Source: an uncultured delta proteobacterium
GTDB taxonomy: Bacteria > Myxococcota_A > Polyangia > Polyangiales > Polyangiaceae
DNA: 64,000 bases
Assembly (NCBI GenBank): GCA_963850305.1
Contig: CAWKKR010000003.1
Location: 1 to 64,000, forward strand
Direction of reading: 5' to 3'
Shown here: in pieces, positions 4,112-16,004 of the stretch
Layout of the letters: every line of letters begins with the position of its first letter
Numbering within the stretch: the stretch's first letter is position 1
Notes under the pieces: generated by a model
The model's database searches: none
Seen by the model: only the letters and a program-made list of their open reading frames with translations
What the model was told of the DNA's origin: nothing
Translations under genes and position numbers: made by a program

Positions 4112-5162
4112 ATGGCGACGAAGCGCACCCGCACCGACACGACGCGACCGAAGCCAAGGAAGGGTCGAGCCGCCATCGACCGCAACGCGCAGGTCGTCCG
4201 GGTGCTCCAGATCCTGCGCGAGCTCGACCGTCTCGGAGGGGTGGACCTGTACGAGCTCTCCCAGCGCTACGGAACGACGACGCGCACCATCCGGCGCGAC
4301 TTCGCGGCGCTCGAGGAGGCCGGCGTGCCGCTGGTCGAGGAGTCCAGCGAAGGGCGGAAGAAACGATGGCGCGTCGACTACAAGGGCCAGCAGCGCAAGC
4401 TCGCGGAGCTGCTCGATGCGAGCCACTACCTCGCGCTGCGCCTCGCCATGGACCAGGCCGGCGCCACGCGCCGGTCGAGCGCGATGTTCGCGACGCTCGA
4501 AGATCTCTCCGACAAGATCGAGAGCGCACTCGGCGCGAAGGGACGGAAGCACATCGAGGCGATCAATGGGTGCTTCTACTCGTACGAGAAGTTCGCGTAC
4601 CAGAGCTCGCCACCGGACGTGTTCTGGCCGCTGATCAGCGCAATCGCCGAGCGCCAGCTTTGCGTTTTGAAATACCGGGCCCCGCGAGCGGAACCCCAGG
4701 ACGCCAAATTTCGCGCCCTGCCACTGAAGCTCTTCGCGCACGGAGGTGCGATCTACCTCCACGCCTTCGTGCCGAAGCACGAGAACGTCATCGTCCTCAA
4801 TCTCCAGCGCCTCCAGGCACTCGAGGTTCTCGATGAGCGCGCGACACCTCCACCCGACTACAAACCGGAGCAGTGGGAGGCGTCCGCGTTCGGCATCTTC
4901 GTCAGCAAGAACCCCGTCCGCTACAAGCTCCGCTTCGTGAGCGATGCCGCTCCCTATATCCGTGAGCGCATCTGGCACCCGACACAGAAGCTTCGCGAGC
5001 TATCGCGCGGCGCGCTCGAGCTGACGTTCACGTGCAGCGAATCCTACGAGGTCGCCGCGTGGGTGGCGTCGTGGCGGACGGCGGTGGAGGTGATCGAACC
5101 GGAGTCGCTGCGACGGGAGATGGCGGAGTTCGGGAAGTGGAGTCGCCGAGAAGTACGGCTAA
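4112..5162 (+). CDS. wHTH-WYL-WCX transcriptional regulator (DriD/PafBC/YafY-like); likely extra base near 5141, true stop TAA 5160-5162
   Basis: ELSQRYGTTTRTIRRDFAALEEAGVPL HTH; LKYRA...PLKLFAHGGAIYLHAF WYL; ERIWHPTQKL...VEVIEPESLR WCX. Confidence 0.9.
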
Positions 5163-5409
5163 CCAGCCCCCCAGCGTTCCGACGAACGCTTCCCGCTCCG
5201 CATCTGTCTCGAACACGTGCACGAGCACCGCGTCCAATCGGTCATCATCGTCGAGCAGATCCGCAGTACGTGCCCTGGTCGACGATCACCGACGGCTTGC
5301 CGTCGAACAGCGCGAGCATGAGGGCGTACCCCTCGCCCCCGCTGTGCTCGACCACATCCGCTACCCGAGTCTCGATCGCGGACCACGACGCGAATGAAAG
5401 GCGTTTCAT
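5159..5409 (-). CDS. Small acidic hypothetical protein (frameshifted)
   Basis: MKRLSFASWSAIETRVADVVEHSGGEGYALMLALFDGKPSVIVDQG + DLLDDDDRLDAVLVHVFETDAEREAFV; upstream GAC-N7-GTC at 5435-5447. Confidence 0.45.
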
Positions 5410-5833
5410 CGACGTCGACCTGGGGTCTTCGGGAGACTCTCGTAGTCGACGGGAACCACGCCGGTAGTCTAAGCCGACCCGAGACAGGCGTCGCCATTCA
5501 TGAACGGGGCTCCGAGTGCCAAGGTGCGATCCAAGGACAAGTCTGACGCACTTTTCCGCCACGTCAGACGCGCGCCGACCTTTTGCTATTCATTCGAACA
5601 GACGGAGCCTGCGCGAGGAACCGTATCATTCGCGCCGTAAAGCGACGGACTACGGCGTCCCTGACGAGCGTTTCAACCCGGGCCGAACTCGTTTGCTCGC
5701 AAGAACTCCGACCAGACCTGTAGGAATGCTCCGAATTCAAACATTTGCGGCGCAAGAGAATGCCGCGTGCGGCGCAAGCGTCTGACGGTATCCGTTCGGT
5801 AGCCCCGGCGGGGCAGAAGGAGCTGCATCACAA

Positions 5834-7520
5834 ATGTCCGACGTCCTCACCATCGGCGCACGACTCGAAGCCCTCATCGGGAAGGATCAACGAAAGAAGG
5901 CCGTCGCAGCCACCTGGCTCGACGCATGGAATTCTTCCAATCCGCCGAAGCAGTTCTCGAGCGAGACCGTCGCCTCGCAACTCTCTCGCGTCCTCAAGTC
6001 CGATCCGGAGGGAGTTCGATTTCTCTTCGGCGACGACATGCGACGAGCTGCGACGTGGGCAGCGTTCCCCGCGGCGACAGCGGCGCAACGCGCGGCCATC
6101 GAACAATTGGCGCACGATGTGCTCGAGGGGCGCGACTTCCGCGTGATCGTCGATCTGAGTTCAGGTCCCACCGACCCGGCCCATGTACCCGTTCTTCTTG
6201 CTGCCGTGCGGGAGGAGTTGCTTACCGACGGAGCCGCTGGTCCGGCCGTCGTTCTCGTCAGCGCCAAGCAGTACGATTTCGTGCCGCGAAGTTTCGACGA
6301 GATCCGCGCACGGATTCGGGTGCACTGCGTTCAGGACGAGCAAGAACGCAAGAGCTACCTCGATGCCGCTCCGCACGCGCTCATCGTATCCACGAACCCG
6401 ACCGATGCGCCCTACGAGCGCTGGTCCGCCCTCGAGTTCGTGTGGGTCAGGGACTCCAACGCCAGACGCGGCTTCGGAGAGGAGCCGCCAGCGCGACCTA
6501 CCGTCGCGATAGTCCCTGAGGACGCGCTGACGGCATTTGCCCGCGACGACATCCTCGATGGGCTGCCGCTCGTTACGCGGCCCCTGCGCCAACTGGGCGA
6601 GCCCGACGAGAGCTCACTCCCGACGTCCGATGCAGGTGAACTGCGAGCTCTGATGCTTCGCCTCGCGACCGGTGAACCAATCACGCGGTCGAGCTACGAT
6701 GGCTCCACGATAGCCATCGGACGCCGGCTCGCCTGGGCGCAGGCGCTGAACGTCGACGCGAGTGCGACCCAGAAGGAGTGGAGGGAGATGCTGCCGCGTC
6801 GCCTCGAGCCGGCAACCATCGTGCCGATCGAGTGGGAACGGCACCTTCATGCCATGACTCGATTTGGTCTGACGGGCGCGTTCGCGTTCATCGCTGAAGA
6901 CTCGGTGCGCATCGTCAACGCGCCACCTGAGGTTCGGATCGCTTCCCTGGAGATTCGACCACCCGGTTCGTGGATGTCGCCGCCGATCGGGTCGACGTTC
7001 TTCGTGACTTCTTCGCCCAAGCGAACGAGATGACCACGGACGATACTGAGGAGGACCCGTTTCTACTACGGCTGGTGGCTCGCCATGCCCGGGACGAGGA
7101 CGACGAGTACGTTCTGGGGCTTGCTCGTGTCGTCCTGCTCGCATCAGCGGTCCTCGATCCAGACCCGCCAGATCTCGTGGAAACATGGACGGAAACCCGC
7201 AAGGGCATTGCCAACCTGCTGCGGGATCGGCTGCCCGAATCACGGTTGCGGATCGACAGCGGCGGGCGTCGCGTAAAGCTCCACTCATCCGAGTGGGATT
7301 CTCTTTCCGACGCGGTCCTAGTGGCCTCCAGCCCCGAGTGGCTGGCAGAGATCGCACGCTCGACGTTCGCTCCCCCATGCGCCCCGGTATTGGTCGACCG
7401 CGCGCACCCGCACGGCGGGAGTGGCGCGATCGAAGCCGAGCTCACGCCGACGCGCTTCGACGAAGGAGATATTCCTGTCAAAGCGTGCGCCGTCGCGCCA
7501 GATGGCGCGATTCTCCGCGG
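5834..7520 (+). CDS. Large hypothetical protein (frameshift near 6950; no stop before it runs into the antisense tRNA, 3' end truncated or uncertain)
   Basis: ORFs 5834-7033 and 6970-7797 are protein-like; RBS AAGGAG upstream. Confidence 0.55.
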
Positions 7521-7593
7521 CCCTCTCGGCAGGATTCGAACCTGCACGATGCGGCTTCGCACGCCGCCGCTCGATCCATCGAGCCACGAGAGG
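7521..7593 (-). tRNA. tRNA-Arg(GCG), slightly non-canonical, no encoded CCA
   Basis: CCTCTCG/CGAGAGG acceptor, GCTC/GAGC D stem with GG-A20, GCGGC-GTGCGAA-GCCGC anticodon arm, GCAGG-TTCGAAT-CCTGC T arm, G73. Confidence 0.8.
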
Positions 7594-7607
7594 GTGAAGA
7601 GAGATGA

Positions 7608-7619
7608 TTTTCAAGGAAC
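7608..7619 (-). promoter_or_regulatory. boxA-like antitermination element GTTCCTTGAAAA
   Basis: Lies between the two minus-strand tRNAs, just after a GCTC-TTCG-GAGC hairpin. Confidence 0.5.
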
Positions 7620-7641
7620 GAAGCTCCGAAGAGCCACGCGG

Positions 7642-7712
7642 GTCGGGATCCAGGATTCGAACCTGGACAGCGCAAGAACGGCGACGCCGCTCTCACGGGA
7701 CCATCTCCCGAC
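7642..7712 (-). pseudogene. Degenerate tRNA (identity unreadable)
   Basis: Intact T arm CCAGG-TTCGAAT-CCTGG and GTCGGGA/TCCCGAC acceptor pairing; D and anticodon arms eroded. Confidence 0.6.
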
Positions 7713-7809
7713 GATGTGCCTGCTCGACTCACGATTCACCGAGTCGAACGAGGCCGATCTTGTGCTGCATCGTCATGTTCATCTTCCTTTCCATTGAATC
7801 CCGGACCCC

Positions 7810-7853
7810 AGAAACGTCGAAAGCCGCCGAGGTTCAGGACCTGGGCGGCTTTC
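7810..7853 (-). terminator. Attenuator terminator of the leftward tRNA operon
   Basis: GAAAGCCGCCCAGG-loop-CCTCGGCGGCTTTC followed by GACGTTTCT. Confidence 0.7.
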
Positions 7854-7880
7854 ATTCGGCACCATGCCGGAGAAATTCGC

Positions 7881-7973
7881 CTAGGTTACGCCTCCGAAAT
7901 GATCTCGGCGCGACAGGGCCAGCGTCGTCCCTAAACGACACGGCGCGCTGTTCTGAATGACGTCACCCTTCAT
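7881..7973 (-). CDS. Leader peptide MKGDVIQNSAPCRLGTTLALSRRDHFGGVT (30 aa)
   Basis: ATG 33 nt after TTGACC (8007-8012); stop context CCTAGGCG nearly complementary to terminator arm CGCCCAGG. Confidence 0.55.
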   Translation of the reverse strand: MKGDVIQNSAPCRLGTTLALSRRDHFGGVT

Positions 7974-8267
7974 GTTGATGTTCCAGATACTCGTCGCGAA
8001 TGAATCGGTCAACGACTGAGACGCAGACCGATCGCGAGACATTCAAACGTTCGTGATCGCGTTCTCACGCTGACCGCTCTGTGCACGAGTGAGTCGTGAG
8101 CAAAGGATGCGGTCGGAAGTTTTCTCGTGCGTTCGCGCCGACGAACGCGCAGCGCACGCGCATGACGACGTCATGCGCGGCTCTCCCACACTTCGCGATT
8201 CGCATTTTGCAAATTCATCATGCAGACACTTGACGAGTCCGCATGCGTGTGCGATTAAGGCAAGGTC

Positions 8268-8405
8268 ATGTTCACGTTAGTTCTAGCCACATCACCCTGG
8301 GCGCTCGGAAGAGCCCCGAGGCATGCGTGCGCAATGGGCGGCGTGTATTTGTCGGTCTGTCTGAGCAAGCGCGCGTTCGCCGGTACGGAGATCGATATGC
8401 GCTAG
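8268..8405 (+). CDS. Leader peptide MFTLVLATSPWALGRAPRHACAMGGVYLSVCLSKRAFAGTEIDMR (45 aa; alternative start 8334)
   Basis: ATG 32 nt after TTGACG (8230-8235); contains TTA, CTA, ACA, TCA, AGA, AGG codons; TAGGGCGGC at the stop pairs with terminator arm GCCGCCC. Confidence 0.55.
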   Translation: MFTLVLATSPWALGRAPRHACAMGGVYLSVCLSKRAFAGTEIDMR

Positions 8406-8432
8406 GGCGGCAAAACCATAGAGAAATCCATG

Positions 8433-8470
8433 GAAGCCGCCCGGGAAACCGAGCGGCTTTCGGCGTTTCT
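8433..8470 (+). terminator. Attenuator terminator of the rightward tRNA operon
   Basis: GAAGCCGCCCGG-GAAA-CCGAGCGGCTTT followed by CGGCGTTTCT; near copy of the 7810-7853 element. Confidence 0.7.
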
Positions 8471-8554
8471 GGGTCTGGGGTTCGTCCTCGGAAGGCGACC
8501 CGCGCCGTAAACGCGGGGCCGATTGGCTAGGTGGTTCAACTCCACACAGGCCCA
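8471..8554 (+). tRNA. tRNA-Tyr(GTA), degenerate (C33, abnormal D arm)
   Basis: GGGTCTG/CAGGCCC acceptor, CCGCG-CCGTAAA-CGCGG anticodon arm, long variable arm GGCCGATTGGCT, GTGG-TTCAACT-CCAC, A73. Confidence 0.65.
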
Positions 8555-8618
8555 CTACTGGTGTGTGAACGGTGAGGTGTGTCCGTATGAAACAACGGCA
8601 GTGATCTATCCATAGTTC

Positions 8619-8689
8619 GGGTCGGTAGCACAGTGGTGTGCAGCGCCCTTTTAAGGCGAATGGTGCGAGTTCAACTCTCGCCCGGCCCA
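8619..8689 (+). tRNA. tRNA-Lys(TTT)
   Basis: GGGTCGG/CCGGCCC, GCAC/GTGC D stem, loop CTTTTAA, GCGAG-TTCAACT-CTCGC, A73. Confidence 0.85.
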
Positions 8690-8705
8690 CGTGTGTCCAC
8701 GACAC

Positions 8706-8776
8706 GGTTTCGTAGCTCAGTGGTGGAGCAGCCGCCTCTTAAGCGGACGGATCGAGTTCGACTCTCGACGAAACCA
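8706..8776 (+). tRNA. tRNA-Lys(CTT)
   Basis: GGTTTCG/CGAAACC, GCTC/GAGC, loop CTCTTAA, TCGAG-TTCGACT-CTCGA, A73. Confidence 0.85.
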
Positions 8777-8819
8777 CTCGGGGCGAAGGCCCCGGTGCGC
8801 GCGCAGCTCTGCGCGCTCG

Positions 8820-8831
8820 GTTCTTTGACAA
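8820..8831 (+). promoter_or_regulatory. boxA-like element GTTCTTTGACAA
   Basis: Between tRNA-Lys(CTT) and tRNA-Asn, after GC hairpins at about 8779-8816. Confidence 0.55.
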
Positions 8832-8893
8832 TTCGAAAGGACGTGCCGACGACGCGCATCGCGCGCGACGTGGCTGGGCTCTCCTCGATCCAT

Positions 8894-8965
8894 TGCCAGG
8901 TGGCGAAGCGGAAACGCAGGCGGCTGTTAACCGCCCTACCGCAGGTTCGAATCCTGCCCTGGTAG
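8894..8965 (+). tRNA. tRNA-Asn(GTT)
   Basis: TGCCAGG/CCTGGTA, GGCGG-CTGTTAA-CCGCC, GCAGG-TTCGAAT-CCTGC, G73. Confidence 0.9.
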
Positions 8966-9004
8966 CCGCGAGACGTCCAGGCCGCCGATCGTGATGTGCT
9001 TCAT
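8963..9004 (-). pseudogene. First 14 codons of an aldo/keto reductase (MKHITIGGLDVSRL), cut at the tRNA-Asn 3' end
   Basis: Typical AKR N-terminus divergent from a LysR gene; the expected GLG continuation is missing. Confidence 0.6.
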
Positions 9005-10894: not shown

Positions 10895-11449
10895 GTGCTC
10901 CCCCTCCCCGCGTTCGATGCCGATGGCATGCTCCCGCCCGGCGACTACGAGCTGACGCTCGATGAGCTTCGAGCGTGTTCGCTCGTAACGGGAAGTAGCG
11001 TCGCATCGTCGACGTGGGATCAGCAGTGGCGCTCGCTGCTCGTGGAGAACCTTGCCGTGCTGGTCGGGCAGTTACGCCAGGTCGGCGTGAGTGAGATCTT
11101 TGCGGACGGCTCTTTCGTCGAGGACAAGGACCACCCGAACGACATCGACGGCTACTTCGTCTGCGAGCTGCGCCGGCTGGCGAGCGGCGAATTGCAGCGC
11201 GATCTCAACCTGCTGGATCCGCACAAGGTCCGGACCTGGGATCCGCGTGAGCGAACGCCGTTCCGTGGGTACCCCAAGAAGCAGCTTCCGATGTGGCACC
11301 AGTACCGCGTCGAGCTTTACCCGCACTACGGCCAGCCGTCGGGCATTCGGGACAGATTTGGGAACGAGCTTGAATTCCCCTCGGCATTCCGGATGTCACG
11401 TCGAGATGGGAAGCCTAGAGGCATCGTGAAGATTGGAGGAACGCCATGA
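10895..11449 (+). CDS. DUF6932-like polymerase-beta nucleotidyltransferase
   Basis: G.LPPG.Y N-terminus; DGSFVEDKDHPNDID (GS...DxD); KPRGIV C-terminus. Confidence 0.75.
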   Translation: MLPLPAFDADGMLPPGDYELTLDELRACSLVTGSSVASSTWDQQWRSLLVENLAVLVGQLRQVGVSEIFADGSFVEDKDHPNDIDGYFVCELRRLASGELQRDLNLLDPHKVRTWDPRERTPFRGYPKKQLPMWHQYRVELYPHYGQPSGIRDRFGNELEFPSAFRMSRRDGKPRGIVKIGGTP

Positions 11450-11880
11450 TCCGCAATGAAACCGAGTACCAGGAGGCGGTGAAGCGACTGAAGGAGGAGA
11501 GCACGCGCTACGAAGCGCACGAAGGCGAGCTCAAGCGGATGGGGCTCAAGCTCGACGAGATCAAGCGCGCCATGGACCCGCTTCGCTCGTTCAACCTTCA
11601 GCTCGAGGAAGAGGTCGAAGCCTACGAACGCCTCAAGCGCGGCGACCTCGGCGAAATCGACAATCTCCACGGCCTTGGTCGGACGCTGGTCGCCCTTCGC
11701 ATCGCTCTCGGCATGACGCAGCGACAGCTCGCCGAGCGCCTGAGCGTCAACGAGTCGCAGGTCTCACGCGACGAGCGCAACGAGTACCACGGCGTCACCG
11801 TGGACCGTGCGAGCCGGATCCTCGACGCGCTCGGGGTGACGCTCAGAAGCGCGTTTCAGTCGCCGATACGGGCGGGCTGA
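11446..11880 (+). CDS. XRE/HigA-like HTH protein
   Basis: MIRNETEY N-terminus; RIALGMTQRQLAERLSVNESQVSRDE HTH; ATGA overlap with upstream gene. Confidence 0.85.
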   Translation: MIRNETEYQEAVKRLKEESTRYEAHEGELKRMGLKLDEIKRAMDPLRSFNLQLEEEVEAYERLKRGDLGEIDNLHGLGRTLVALRIALGMTQRQLAERLSVNESQVSRDERNEYHGVTVDRASRILDALGVTLRSAFQSPIRAG

Positions 11881-12128: not shown

Positions 12129-12996
12129 ATGTCCGCAACCAACCGAACCCTGTCGAAGAACGAGGCCAAGATCGTTCTCGATCTCGAGTGGCGGGCCCAG
12201 AAGGCCGTCACGGCGGCGGAGATGCGTTCGATCCTCGGCGCCTCGGATGGGTACGCCCGCTTCGTGGCCCACCGTCTCGTGCAAGAAGGGGTGGCTCCAG
12301 CGCGTCCGCCCGGGACTGTTCCAGCTCGTACCCGGCCGAGCGAGGGCCCGAGGGCGTGAGCGACACGAACCCGCTGGCGATCGGACCGCTGCTCGTCGAT
12401 CCGTACTTCTTCTCCTTCGGCACCGCCTGCACGCACTACGGCTTCACCGAACAGGCGTTCGCCGAGGTGTACGTCGTCGTGCCGGACGCGCCAAGAGACC
12501 CGTGACGGTCAGGGGTACCCGGTACGTCTTCGCATCCGTTCCTGAGCGACGCTTCTTCGGCTTCGAGGAAGTCGAAGTGCTGGGCTCGAAGGTCCACATG
12601 GCAACGAGGGAGAGAGCCGTGCTCGACGCACTCGATCGCCCCCGCTATGCGGGCGGCATCCGCGAGGTCTCTCTAGTCGTCGGGAAGGCCGCGAGTCGTC
12701 TGTCCTGGGAGAACCTTCTCGGTCTTGCGAAGCGCTGGGACGAGTCGGCTGGTATCCAGCGGCTCGGCTACTTCCTGGACCTGCATCACGTCGAGCTACC
12801 AGCGAAGGTCCGTGACCGCCTCCGAGCGCTCATCGCGCCGGGGAGCAAGGTCCATCTCGGTTCCCGAACCGAGTGGGGAACCAGCGGCCATCTCGTTCAG
12901 CCGTGGGACATCATCGAGAATGTCCCGCGCGAGCAGTTGCTGGAAAAGGACCGCGACCGTCGCCGCAAGCGAGCCTTCCCGAAGAGGCCGAAGTGA
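12129..12996 (+). CDS. abiEi: Type IV TA antitoxin AbiEi-like (several frameshifts)
   Basis: L..KGWLQRVRPGLFQL, YFSFGTA..HYGFTEQ, FFGFEE...ATRERAVLDALDRPRYAGGI. Confidence 0.8.
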
Positions 12997-13878
12997 TCCC
13001 GAAGAAGATGGTGGATCGCTACGCCCACCAGAGCGGGGTCAAGGACCAACTCGTTGCGGAACGAGAGGTGGTGCTCACCTACGCCCTTCACGCCATGCGC
13101 GAAGCGAGTGTCCTCGATCTCCTCGCTTTCAAGGGAGGGACCTGCCTGCGGAAAATCATCTTCGGATCGACGGGACGCTTCTCCGAGGATCTGGACTTCA
13201 CGCTGCGCGGTGATGATGAACAGGCCGCTCTGACCGCGATCTACGAGGTGTTCAACACGAACCATCACGGCGTCGTGTTCGAGTTGGACGCCTGGTACGA
13301 GACCGACGATGGCTTCGGCATGGAAGTTCGGTACGGACACGAGTGGAACAGCGCGGGAAAGTACCGCTTGCAGGTAAGCACGCGGGAGAAGCCCACGCTG
13401 GACGTCACCAACTACTCGATGGTCGAGCAGGTCTACTTCAAGGACCTCGAGTTCGGCCTCTTCGATGTCCCCTGCCTGAATACCATCGAGGTGGCGTCCG
13501 AGAAGATCCGCGCCGCCTTCCAACGCGCCAAGGTTCGCGATTTCTACGACCTGCACCTTCTGACCCGGCAGAAATTGGACGGTGATCTCCTTCGCGCACT
13601 CGTCGTGCTGAAGCTCTGGCAAGTGCGTGATGCGTTCGACGGCTCGACGTTCTTCTGCGAAACTGAAGAGCAGCGACTACGATTGGGCGGACCTGAAACG
13701 CCTCCTCCGTCCGAACGATCGCGTCGAGCCCGCGACGATCATCGAGGGGATCGAGTTCCATTTCAAAGCCTTGCACGACCTCACCGATCTCGAACGAGAC
13801 GTCGTAGCCGATGCCAAGAAGGGCGCGCGGAACGATCCACTCGCGGAGCGTCTCCGCGAGTGGATTCGGAGTCGCTAA
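12993..13878 (+). CDS. abiEii: Type IV TA toxin AbiEii nucleotidyltransferase (frameshift near 13655)
   Basis: LAFKGGTCLRK...RFSEDLDF...SEKIRA...RDFYDL. Confidence 0.9.
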
Positions 13879-13965
13879 AGGGAGCGCGCGTTTTCGGTTC
13901 CGCAGTCCGGACAGTTCATCTGACCCCGAACCGCGAACTCGGCCACCACACGAACTCGAGGGTGC

Positions 13966-14021
13966 CCGTTTCACCGGGGCCAGCGTGGAATGCGGTCGAG
14001 AGAAATGTAGATGCCAGCGAA
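13966..14021 (+). repeat. About 55-bp repeat, second copy at 34989-35043 (-)
   Basis: CCGTTTCACCGGGGCCAGCGTGGAATGCGGTCGAGAGAAATGTAGATGCCAGCGAA versus CCGTTTCCCCGGGGCAGCATGGAATGCGATCGAGAGGAATGTTGATGCCGGCGAA. Confidence 0.8.
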
Positions 14022-14389
14022 TGTTGCCCGCCGCCGAATTCTCCGATCGCGCGTTTCCGTTTTGCGTTCCGCAAGTTCGAGCGGAACCACGGGGCTGCTG
14101 CGCACTTAACCAGGGTCAAAATGAGAAGTCGCGACACGCCGTGTCAGAACTTTTGAGGCCTAAACCAAATGCTTTCAGAAGCTTAGGAGATACAGCCAAA
14201 CTGTAGTGAAAGGCCGCGTCTGCTTTCAGAGTCCGGCCATTCGCGCTGCAAGGAAGGAGTGAACAAGCGTTCCCTCGCTCAGCGCCTCGTGCGGAGCCGG
14301 GCTCTCACTGCCGCACCTCTGGACGGGCGCCCGCCGCGATCGCTCCACTCGGCGGCGTCGTCGAACACCTTGGCGCTCTAACCGCGCCG

Positions 14390-15468: not shown

Positions 15469-15699
15469 ATGAACGCGCTGAAGGCCCACGTCGAGAACGG
15501 CCGCATCATCGTCGATGAGCCGACGGATCTGCCCGACGGAACGCTGCTTCGCGTCGTGCCCGTCCAGGACGACCCAGCGCTGGACGCGGAGGAGCGGGAG
15601 AGAATTCTCCGCGCCATCGATGAAGGCCAGGCCGCTGCCAGACGGGGCGAGCACGTGGACGCCGAAGAGTTCGTGTCCGAGCTCCTCGCTCAGCCGTGA
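15469..15699 (+). CDS. Antitoxin (AF2212/DUF104-like N-terminus)
   Basis: MNALKAHVENGRIIVDEPTDLPDG...RAIDEGQAAARRGEHVDAEEF. Confidence 0.7.
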   Translation: MNALKAHVENGRIIVDEPTDLPDGTLLRVVPVQDDPALDAEERERILRAIDEGQAAARRGEHVDAEEFVSELLAQP

Positions 15700-16004
15700 A
15701 GGTTCGGCTCGCCAAGCCCGCGCAGCGGCAGGCGCGGAAGATGGACGCCTGGTGGCGCGCGCATCGACCAGAAGCGCGAAATCTCTTCGCGGAAGAGCTG
15801 CGTGATGCCCAACGACGGCTCGTGGAGAAGCCGGACCTCGGGCAGGTCCACGTCGACCGCGGCGGGGTCCCCGTGCGCCGGCTGCTCATGGAGCGAACTC
15901 GCAACCACGTCTACTACGAGGTACACGAGAGCGACCGAGTCATCATGATCGTCGCGCTCTGGGGGGCCGTGAAAGGTAGCGGGCCGGATCTCGGTGATGG
16001 CTGA
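15696..16004 (+). CDS. ParE/RelE-family toxin
   Basis: MKVRLAKPAQRQ...WWRAHRP...LFAEEL...VRRLL...HVYY...IVALW; GTGA overlap. Confidence 0.8.
   Translation: MKVRLAKPAQRQARKMDAWWRAHRPEARNLFAEELRDAQRRLVEKPDLGQVHVDRGGVPVRRLLMERTRNHVYYEVHESDRVIMIVALWGAVKGSGPDLGDG

Follow-up and report, generated by a model that had tools for sequence, protein, structure and literature searches.

Classical attenuators such as trpL, hisL, the pheST leader and the multivalent ilv and thr leaders form either an antiterminator or a terminator, depending on whether the ribosome stalls within a leader or reaches its stop codon. Antitermination by boxA and Nus factors is known from ribosomal RNA (rRNA) operons and from arrays of clustered regularly interspaced short palindromic repeats (CRISPR). 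Attenuation at the upstream open reading frame (uORF) of whiB7/wblC was reportedly described by Lee in 2022. The long uORF of this actinobacterial system has no run of a single amino acid, its full translation tips the balance to an intrinsic terminator and stalling to an antiterminator; the composition of the uORF sets the starvations that are sensed, the M. smegmatis uORF contains all amino acids except Cys, and the uORF sequence varies freely (bioRxiv 10.1101/2023.06.02.543512; PMC11550727). Transfer RNA (tRNA) L-arrays are supernumerary, patchily distributed and located near HNH endonuclease genes; the Anabaena trn array is induced by translation stress and controlled by a DNA-binding repressor, and the TrcR regulon includes RNA ligase (RtcB), slipin and HNH genes (PMC8421152; PMC10272220). 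Here, we report on two divergent tRNA units in a 64,000-nucleotide (nt) stretch of Polyangiaceae DNA (contig CAWKKR010000003.1; hereafter the window), each lying behind a short leader open reading frame (ORF) and a GC-rich hairpin. We consider it likely that these units carry a real and conserved, probably general translation-stress attenuator, similar to that of whiB7, which would gate tRNA L-arrays and RNA-repair genes, so that spare tRNAs are probably made only when ribosomes struggle.

Distribution of the leader-hairpin element and its targets

In each unit, a short ORF whose stop codon lies over a candidate antiterminator is followed by a GC hairpin with an interrupted U-tract and by tRNAs and a boxA-like motif. 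The original prediction, made from the letters of this DNA alone, had described two back-to-back units with six tRNA or tRNA-like genes, leaders of 30–45 amino acids with TTGAC 32–33 nt before the ATG, complementarity between the leader stop codon and the 5' arm of the hairpin in both units, and boxA-like motifs within both. All of these features were recovered (TTGAC hexamers at 8230 and 8012), with the qualification that only four of the six tRNAs are clearly intact, tRNA-Tyr being atypical and a possible pseudogene, and one being a remnant. The hairpin covariance model found only two strong matches in the 6.26-Mb genome, both at this locus.

Searches with the hairpin pattern alone returned loci with the same hairpin after a stop codon and GGCGG, ahead of tRNA arrays, in Sorangium cellulosum So ce26, Polyangium fumosum, Polyangium sp. 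6x1 and metagenome-assembled genomes of Polyangiaceae. The covariance model, built from 32 examples, matched 65 of 151 genomes of the family, a tally that is too high, since E≤0.01 lets false matches in. The figure used for the family is the inspected one: at least two tRNAs lay downstream in 42 of 55 matching genomes, at least one in 47 and none in 8, the other ten matching genomes being outside this set. Among 116 distinct full-length matches (training sequences included), 98 preceded tRNAs, typically in the order Tyr-Lys-Lys-Gln-Asn-Thr-Glu-Phe. The remaining targets included RNA ligase (two loci, both of which have a tRNA at a distance of less than 1.5 kb as well), TROVE/Ro60, EF-Tu, transporters of the major facilitator superfamily (two), a methyltransferase, and a weak YrlA-like RNA with an SPFH gene (two loci). 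The leader-terminator unit, for which the original prediction had suggested a covariance-model search, is conserved in about 100 homologues and usually precedes tRNAs; it is not restricted to tRNAs, as it also stands before RNA-repair and translation genes.

At the level of the order, 23 of 151 genomes matched, including other families of the order; of 16 new loci inspected, 13 lay beside tRNA arrays, two before ORFs judged HNH-like by likeness, and one was a plain terminator. A phylum search matched 13 of 151 genomes at E≤0.01. Twelve of its loci outside the family, one of them in the order, were inspected; ordinary terminators or hairpins without relation to the element accounted for 11, and the remaining one seemed to have a different leader, so that no member of the attenuator family was seen outside the order among these loci. 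The exception (L305, near 1500-1620 on the minus strand; L-numbers label the homologous loci and DNA stretches compared) has a different short leader with a TTGAC promoter, stop codon and hairpin in another family of the phylum, and is probably a separate attenuator. A pattern scan of genome contigs gave at least 122 matches, which among the matches listed were mostly chance or plain terminators. In IMG/VR, 8 of 38 and 9 of 10 pattern matches stood before tRNA arrays, on 15 distinct contigs. Three of these carriers are circular and 407–437 kb long and may be phages; searches with four phage structural Pfam families gave no match in the records covered, Gp23 and Terminase_6N in 0 of 5 and sheath and Terminase_6C in 0 of 5 (7 distinct records; the Gp23 control matched nowhere).

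The homologous arrays reach 21 tRNAs in 3 kb and, being long, non-periodic, supernumerary and patchy, can be classed as putative tRNA L-arrays. When 61 relatives were searched at the DNA level, the matches were fragments of tRNAs and hairpins only, and the locus as a whole had no homologue. boxA-like motifs occur within the arrays in a strand-specific manner (sense in 46 of 72 arrays, antisense in 2) and resemble both the rRNA leader motif of the genome and a site before a CRISPR-like array, so they are best described as candidate boxA elements of the strand-specific, rRNA-like consensus. The exact pattern occurs three times in the genome, twice at this locus and once ahead of a repeat array, and the rRNA leader has a copy with one mismatch. 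The third boxA-like motif lies near 1627217 on genome contig C8, directly 5' of the repeats, which we take to be a CRISPR array. Mini-ORFs with ribosome-binding sites were found 3' of the hairpin in 26 of 73 arrays, compared with 2 in antisense.

Individual loci showed further features. Two to four attenuators stand in tandem or within one array, some with their own promoter-like sites, in L229, L228, L259, L264, L099, L274, L286, L288 and L294, suggesting that sub-arrays may be gated separately. In L241:900-1500(-) and L251:1615-2295(+), attenuator and SPFH gene are separated by conserved non-coding DNA of about 600 nt, in which a mini-ORF, tRNA-like pieces and a match to YrlA below threshold (40.8 and 30.1 bits; cut-off 69) were seen; this is possibly a divergent Y RNA cluster. 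In L006:1-1680(-), a Ro60 vWA domain precedes a tRNA array in which Arg-GCG and tRNAs with inserted hairpins are present, and L279:3-338(-) has an EF-Tu paralogue after the same type of leader. Insertions in the anticodon or T-arm are frequent in the tRNA-Tyr and tRNA-Lys of the arrays (L034:3600-3800(-), L035:1600-2000, L324, L326, L328, L330); a similar insert is found in tRNA-Tyr of L034 and L035, with a second copy in tRNA-Lys of L035, and these could be small mobile inserts or decay. ARAGORN called a tRNA with a CTA anticodon (amber) within the array of L256, and a tRNA-Sec near another attenuator (L021:4958-5055(-)).

The proposed stop/hairpin switch and the leader frame

Among 119 instances of the element, a stop codon lay within 6 nt of the antiterminator core in 101 (TAG 84, TAA 9, TGA 8). 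In 42 of 67 sequences, the base that follows the invariant CCGCC pairs with the antiterminator, compared with 28.1 ± 3.6 after shuffling (0 of 5000 shuffles reached 42); pairing of the same base with the 3' arm of the hairpin was seen in 27 of 67, against 22.5 shuffled (p 0.07). Antiterminator, 5' arm and 3' arm change together in L034, L035, L341 and L343, and also in L345. When nascent RNA was folded, the antiterminator core formed in 85 of 101 instances. In both units of the window, masking of the stop gave the hairpin and an upstream stall gave the antiterminator in nascent RNA, with energies of -29.2/-27.1 and -30.0/-35.3 kcal/mol. The two structures are thus predicted to be mutually exclusive and close in energy, which agrees with the alternative folds expected by the original prediction.

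The U-tract is interrupted in most members (5–6 U in 12 nt), and the hairpin was not called as a terminator. One could therefore suppose that the leader senses translation in the same way while the hairpin serves as a pause or processing stem, with termination being Rho-dependent, or control being post-transcriptional through RNase cleavage or stability. The boxA motifs within the arrays imply Rho pressure, and Rho-type uORF attenuation is described in S. meliloti (PMC12218461). However, the U-tract is unbroken in L034, L035, L341, L343, L315 and L323, and housekeeping tRNA genes of other GC-rich genomes (L073, L105, L128, L144, L296, L306) end in the same broken tail. We regard this explanation as distinctly unlikely.

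In 96 of 101 instances, the frame that ends at this stop has no other stop over 40 codons, as compared with 39 and 51 in the shifted frames, and an ATG is found 28–70 codons upstream in 85 of 101, as compared with 7 and 10. Leaders are mostly 45–62 codons long. In all eight sequences of the plus-strand leader (seven from close metagenome relatives), the length is exactly 45 codons without indel or stop, while residues drift, with a ratio of nonsynonymous to synonymous polymorphism (pN/pS) of 0.74; stops are common in frame +1, and the probability of finding none after column shuffling was 0.03. These data show that the leader frame is under selection to stay open and that the peptide mostly is not.

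No run of control codons for a single amino acid or pathway, as in classical attenuators, was found in the leaders. We found instead that all 20 amino acids occur in 23 of 74 non-redundant leaders, compared with 2.5 expected (maximum 10 in 2000 resamplings) and with 0.5% of 7007 random genomic ORFs of leader length. Cys, Trp, Tyr and His are under-dispersed, at about one each per leader (variance/mean near 0.4), and the rare residues Trp, Tyr, Cys and His stand at scattered positions in varied order, the mean identity between leaders being 20%. The excess persists in fixed windows before the stop and is gone in shifted frames; in held-out families, 6 of 10 leaders had at least 19 amino acids (p 0.025). 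NAU codons are also preferred, with 227 against 144 NAC (0.61), as compared with 407 against 1162 in other U/C boxes (0.26). This contrast is absent in shifted frames and weaker in genes, and the held-out ratio was 27:26 against 56:216 in other boxes. The genome encodes TGT, and the NAU bias may be linked to queuosine tRNAs.

In 51 of 101 instances (background 0.18), the last base of a Shine-Dalgarno-like GGAG(G/A) or GGAAG lies 8 nt before the stop, and spacings of 5, 6, 7, 10 or 11 nt also occur; the 16S tail of the genome is canonical. The covariance model favours this motif, but loci retrieved with the hairpin alone already showed it clearly. GGAGG was considered as a second antiterminator and rejected, as its A stays where the hairpin has C opposite. 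The recurrent C-terminal residues encoded here (an NPE-like motif), together with a central Cys in many leaders, could instead mean that the peptide itself is a functional product or an arrest peptide. Against this stand the pN/pS value and the bases flanking the motif, which are fixed across different amino acids: the codon before GAR ends in G in 52 of 54 cases (seven amino acids), and G is the first base of the next codon in 50 of 54. In addition, the motif is seen in other frames. The fixed flanking G and the occurrence in other frames point to a constraint on the nucleotides, and a role of the peptide seems to us scarcely probable.

The copy in the window

The features of both units are collected in Table 1. 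The curated covariance models of Rfam matched the locus with tRNA models only, with no T-box or other cis-regulator match. All tRNA anticodons of the window are duplicated elsewhere in the genome, except Arg-GCG, which is absent from its other tRNA genes.

Table 1. Positions in the window of the features of the two divergent units
Feature	Position	Strand	Observations
Candidate promoter, plus unit	8230..8259	+	TTGAC -35, weak non-consensus -10; -35 and TGTGCGA block kept in 7/7 close relatives; no call by consensus scan
Leader ORF, 45 codons	8268..8405	+	ATG 8268, TAG 8403; 18 different amino acids (without Asn, Gln); no stop or indel in 7/7 relatives; pN/pS as in text
Shine-Dalgarno-like GGAGA	8387..8391	+	11 nt 5' of leader stop; family motif mostly at 8 nt
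Candidate antiterminator over leader stop codon	8403..8411	+	Pairs with hairpin 5' arm, nascent fold P=1.0
Terminator-like hairpin and broken U-tract	8432..8468	+	Covariance-model match E 8.6e-9, model trained partly on this hairpin
tRNA-Tyr(GUA), atypical, possibly decayed	8471..8555	+	ARAGORN at relaxed threshold only, flagged possible pseudogene; C33, weak D-arm; relatives: U33 in 4/7, anticodon loop replaced in 3/7
Five-codon mini-ORF and ribosome-binding site	8587..8604	+	Between tRNA-Tyr and tRNA-Lys; kept in 7/7 relatives
tRNA-Lys(UUU)	8619..8690	+	ARAGORN, default
tRNA-Lys(CUU)	8706..8777	+	ARAGORN, default
boxA-like element after hairpin	8820..8831	+	Similar motif in own rRNA leader
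tRNA-Asn(GUU)	8894..8967	+	ARAGORN, default; array ends here, relatives go on to Thr and further
Candidate promoter, minus unit, TTGACC-17-TATCTG	7984..8012	-	Similar in L324, L274, L286, L294; deleted in L325
Leader ORF, 30 codons	7881..7973	-	ATG 7973, TAG 7883; alternative in-frame ATG 8042 gives 53 codons; open in L324, L325 with in-frame length changes
Shine-Dalgarno-like GGAGG	7891..7895	-	7 nt 5' of stop; frame differs from most of family
Candidate antiterminator over stop codon	7878..7885	-	Complementarity and folding
Terminator-like hairpin and broken U-tract	7812..7853	-	Compensatory A-U to G-C pair in L325
17-codon mini-ORF and ribosome-binding site	7729..7782	-	3' of hairpin; related mini-ORF visible in L325
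tRNA remnant (acceptor stem and T-arm only)	7642..7712	-	No anticodon loop; by array order, would occupy the Gln place of full arrays
boxA-like element after small hairpin	7608..7619	-	Motif search
tRNA-Arg(GCG)	7519..7593	-	ARAGORN, default; kept in L325, L326

In six of the seven close relatives, the plus array continues past Asn to Thr, and then to Glu, Phe, Pro and His where the contig allows; the seventh contig stops at Asn. The minus array continues past Arg-GCG in one relative (L325). The minus unit is partly present in L324-L326, and other DNA takes its place in L327, L329 and L330; the mirror pair is lineage-specific. A further weak boxA-like motif follows tRNA-Arg at 7474-7484(-), in a stretch common to L325 and L326; more tRNA-like genes follow in L325.

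The longer arrays of the relatives indicate that the tRNA set of the window is a truncation, and this removes the basis for the earlier suggestion that Tyr, Asn, Lys and Arg had been chosen as targets of colicin E5, PrrC and colicin D. A dedicated cassette that replaces tRNAs cut by such toxins would agree with arrays that start with Tyr, Lys, Lys, Gln and Asn, with RNA ligase and Ro60 as co-targets, and with the NAU bias, which fits a loss of Tyr, His, Asn and Asp tRNAs. However, the long arrays cover most amino acids, the leaders sample all of them, and Arg-GCG is not among the anticodons known for colicin D. We consider a dedicated anti-tRNase function highly unlikely, although damage by tRNases may be one of several triggers.

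The locus is part of a variable stretch, in which WYL, LysR, toxin-antitoxin and integrase-domain genes also occur, and precedes the housekeeping groESL and ATP synthase genes. Its flanks include a WYL regulator (4112-5467), a DUF6932 and helix-turn-helix pair (10895-11880), an AbiEii-type pair (12247-14156) and a ParE-type pair (15469-16004). The WYL, toxin-antitoxin and integrase-domain neighbours, together with the truncated arrays, the atypical tRNA-Tyr, the tRNA remnant and the weak plus-strand promoter, raise the question of whether the family switch is real and the copy in the window a silent, decaying relic of a mobile array. However, the switch region is 98% identical among eight relatives, compared with 71–78% in the flanks (21 of its 70 nt being the search pattern itself), the leader frame is intact, and four tRNAs score normally. 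We therefore think a silent relic unlikely, and describe the window as carrying two truncated, partly decayed copies with near-complete samplers.

Proposed mechanism and comparison with known systems

We propose that a ribosome reaching the leader stop on time, possibly held there by pairing of the Shine-Dalgarno-like motif with 16S rRNA, would cover the antiterminator, allowing the hairpin to form and transcription to end. If the ribosome were delayed anywhere upstream, or absent, the antiterminator would be free and RNA polymerase would read into the tRNAs, where boxA and Nus factors may shield the non-coding transcript from Rho. Since every amino acid tends to be represented in the leaders, with a preference for NAU codons, such a switch would respond to ribosome inhibition or to a lack of, or damage to, almost any tRNA, and not to one amino acid in particular. 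With respect to the masking at the stop and release by stalling suggested originally, the layout of stop, antiterminator and hairpin is conserved and covaries in about 100 homologues, as that suggestion required; termination itself is a prediction from sequence. We further favour, with some reserve, the more specific view of codon-census attenuators, in which the leader is selected for at least one codon per amino acid, biased to wobble-read NAU and clamped at the stop by the Shine-Dalgarno-like motif, thereby reporting the whole tRNA pool and inducing RNA-repair genes and arrays of spare tRNAs, both in Polyangiales and in the giant mobile elements of this order.

Several observations tell against this interpretation. 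The covariation loses its significance within stop-offset classes, so that most of it reflects a shift of register, and related sequences do not count as independent. Shuffled upstream sequence often sequesters the GC-rich arm too (0.66 vs 0.93). The hairpin wins in full-length equilibrium folds without a ribosome, and the switch must consequently be kinetic. The broken tail is found in the same form behind none of the housekeeping tRNAs of the genome (2 of 52 loose matches). A consensus scan called no sigma-70 promoter and neither hairpin as a terminator, as the -10 elements and broken U-tracts fail its rules. The covariance model favours features of its training sequences, and the leaders of the window are themselves incomplete samplers with 18 and 17 different amino acids (18–19 in plus-strand leaders of relatives). 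Finally, four RNA libraries (soil, sediment or unspecified) yielded contigs that align from 8386 onward with >90% identity and cross the plus-strand hairpin into tRNA-Tyr, one extending to 8778; these are contigs of relatives, uninformative on ends, strand and level, whose uncovered parts prove nothing, and they fit read-through in relatives or DNA carry-over and are not a sign of termination. A word search of sequencing runs gave no run with half of the words (best 0.16).

In the literature considered, the Anabaena repressor is the only account of how supernumerary tRNA arrays are silenced and induced, and the main texts of PMC8421152 and PMC10272220 contain neither "attenuat" nor "leader". 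In agreement with the original prediction, no account of leader-peptide control of tRNA arrays was found in a literature search of partial coverage. The present element shares with the L-arrays and Anabaena trn the supernumerary, patchy tRNA arrays, and its targets parallel the gene types of the TrcR regulon; in contrast to the Anabaena repressor, control here is apparently exerted by cis RNA and the ribosome. It would thus be a second, protein-free and compact answer to how such arrays stay silent and switch on, present in about a third of the genomes of one family and in giant virus-classified contigs, and would couple the supply of tRNAs and the repair of RNA directly to how fast codons are decoded.

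The choice between antiterminator and terminator, dependent on stop or stall, is common to the classical attenuators, which differ in that here there is no single-pathway codon run, no separate protector hairpin was found, leaders are 2–4 times longer and tRNA genes are the target. The boxA motif is the same as in the rRNA leader of the genome and before its CRISPR-like array, although here it lies inside a tRNA array, downstream of an attenuator. The likeness to whiB7/wblC extends to a long uORF without a one-residue run, the terminator/antiterminator choice, composition-based sensing and a drifting uORF sequence. However, the sequences are unrelated, no whiB7/wblC gene lies downstream, and the targets are tRNA arrays and RNA-repair genes, not a transcription factor; selection for all 20 amino acids can be tested statistically across the family, and the NAU bias, the Shine-Dalgarno-like motif before the stop and the downstream boxA are further differences. 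The all-20-amino-acid leader is an unusual selection signature, of presence and not of position, which could help to detect sensors of this kind elsewhere or be used in a general translation-stress reporter for antibiotic-producing myxobacteria. Taken together, these comparisons suggest that the mechanism is a variant of a known one, and that the target class and the selection signature are apparently undescribed.

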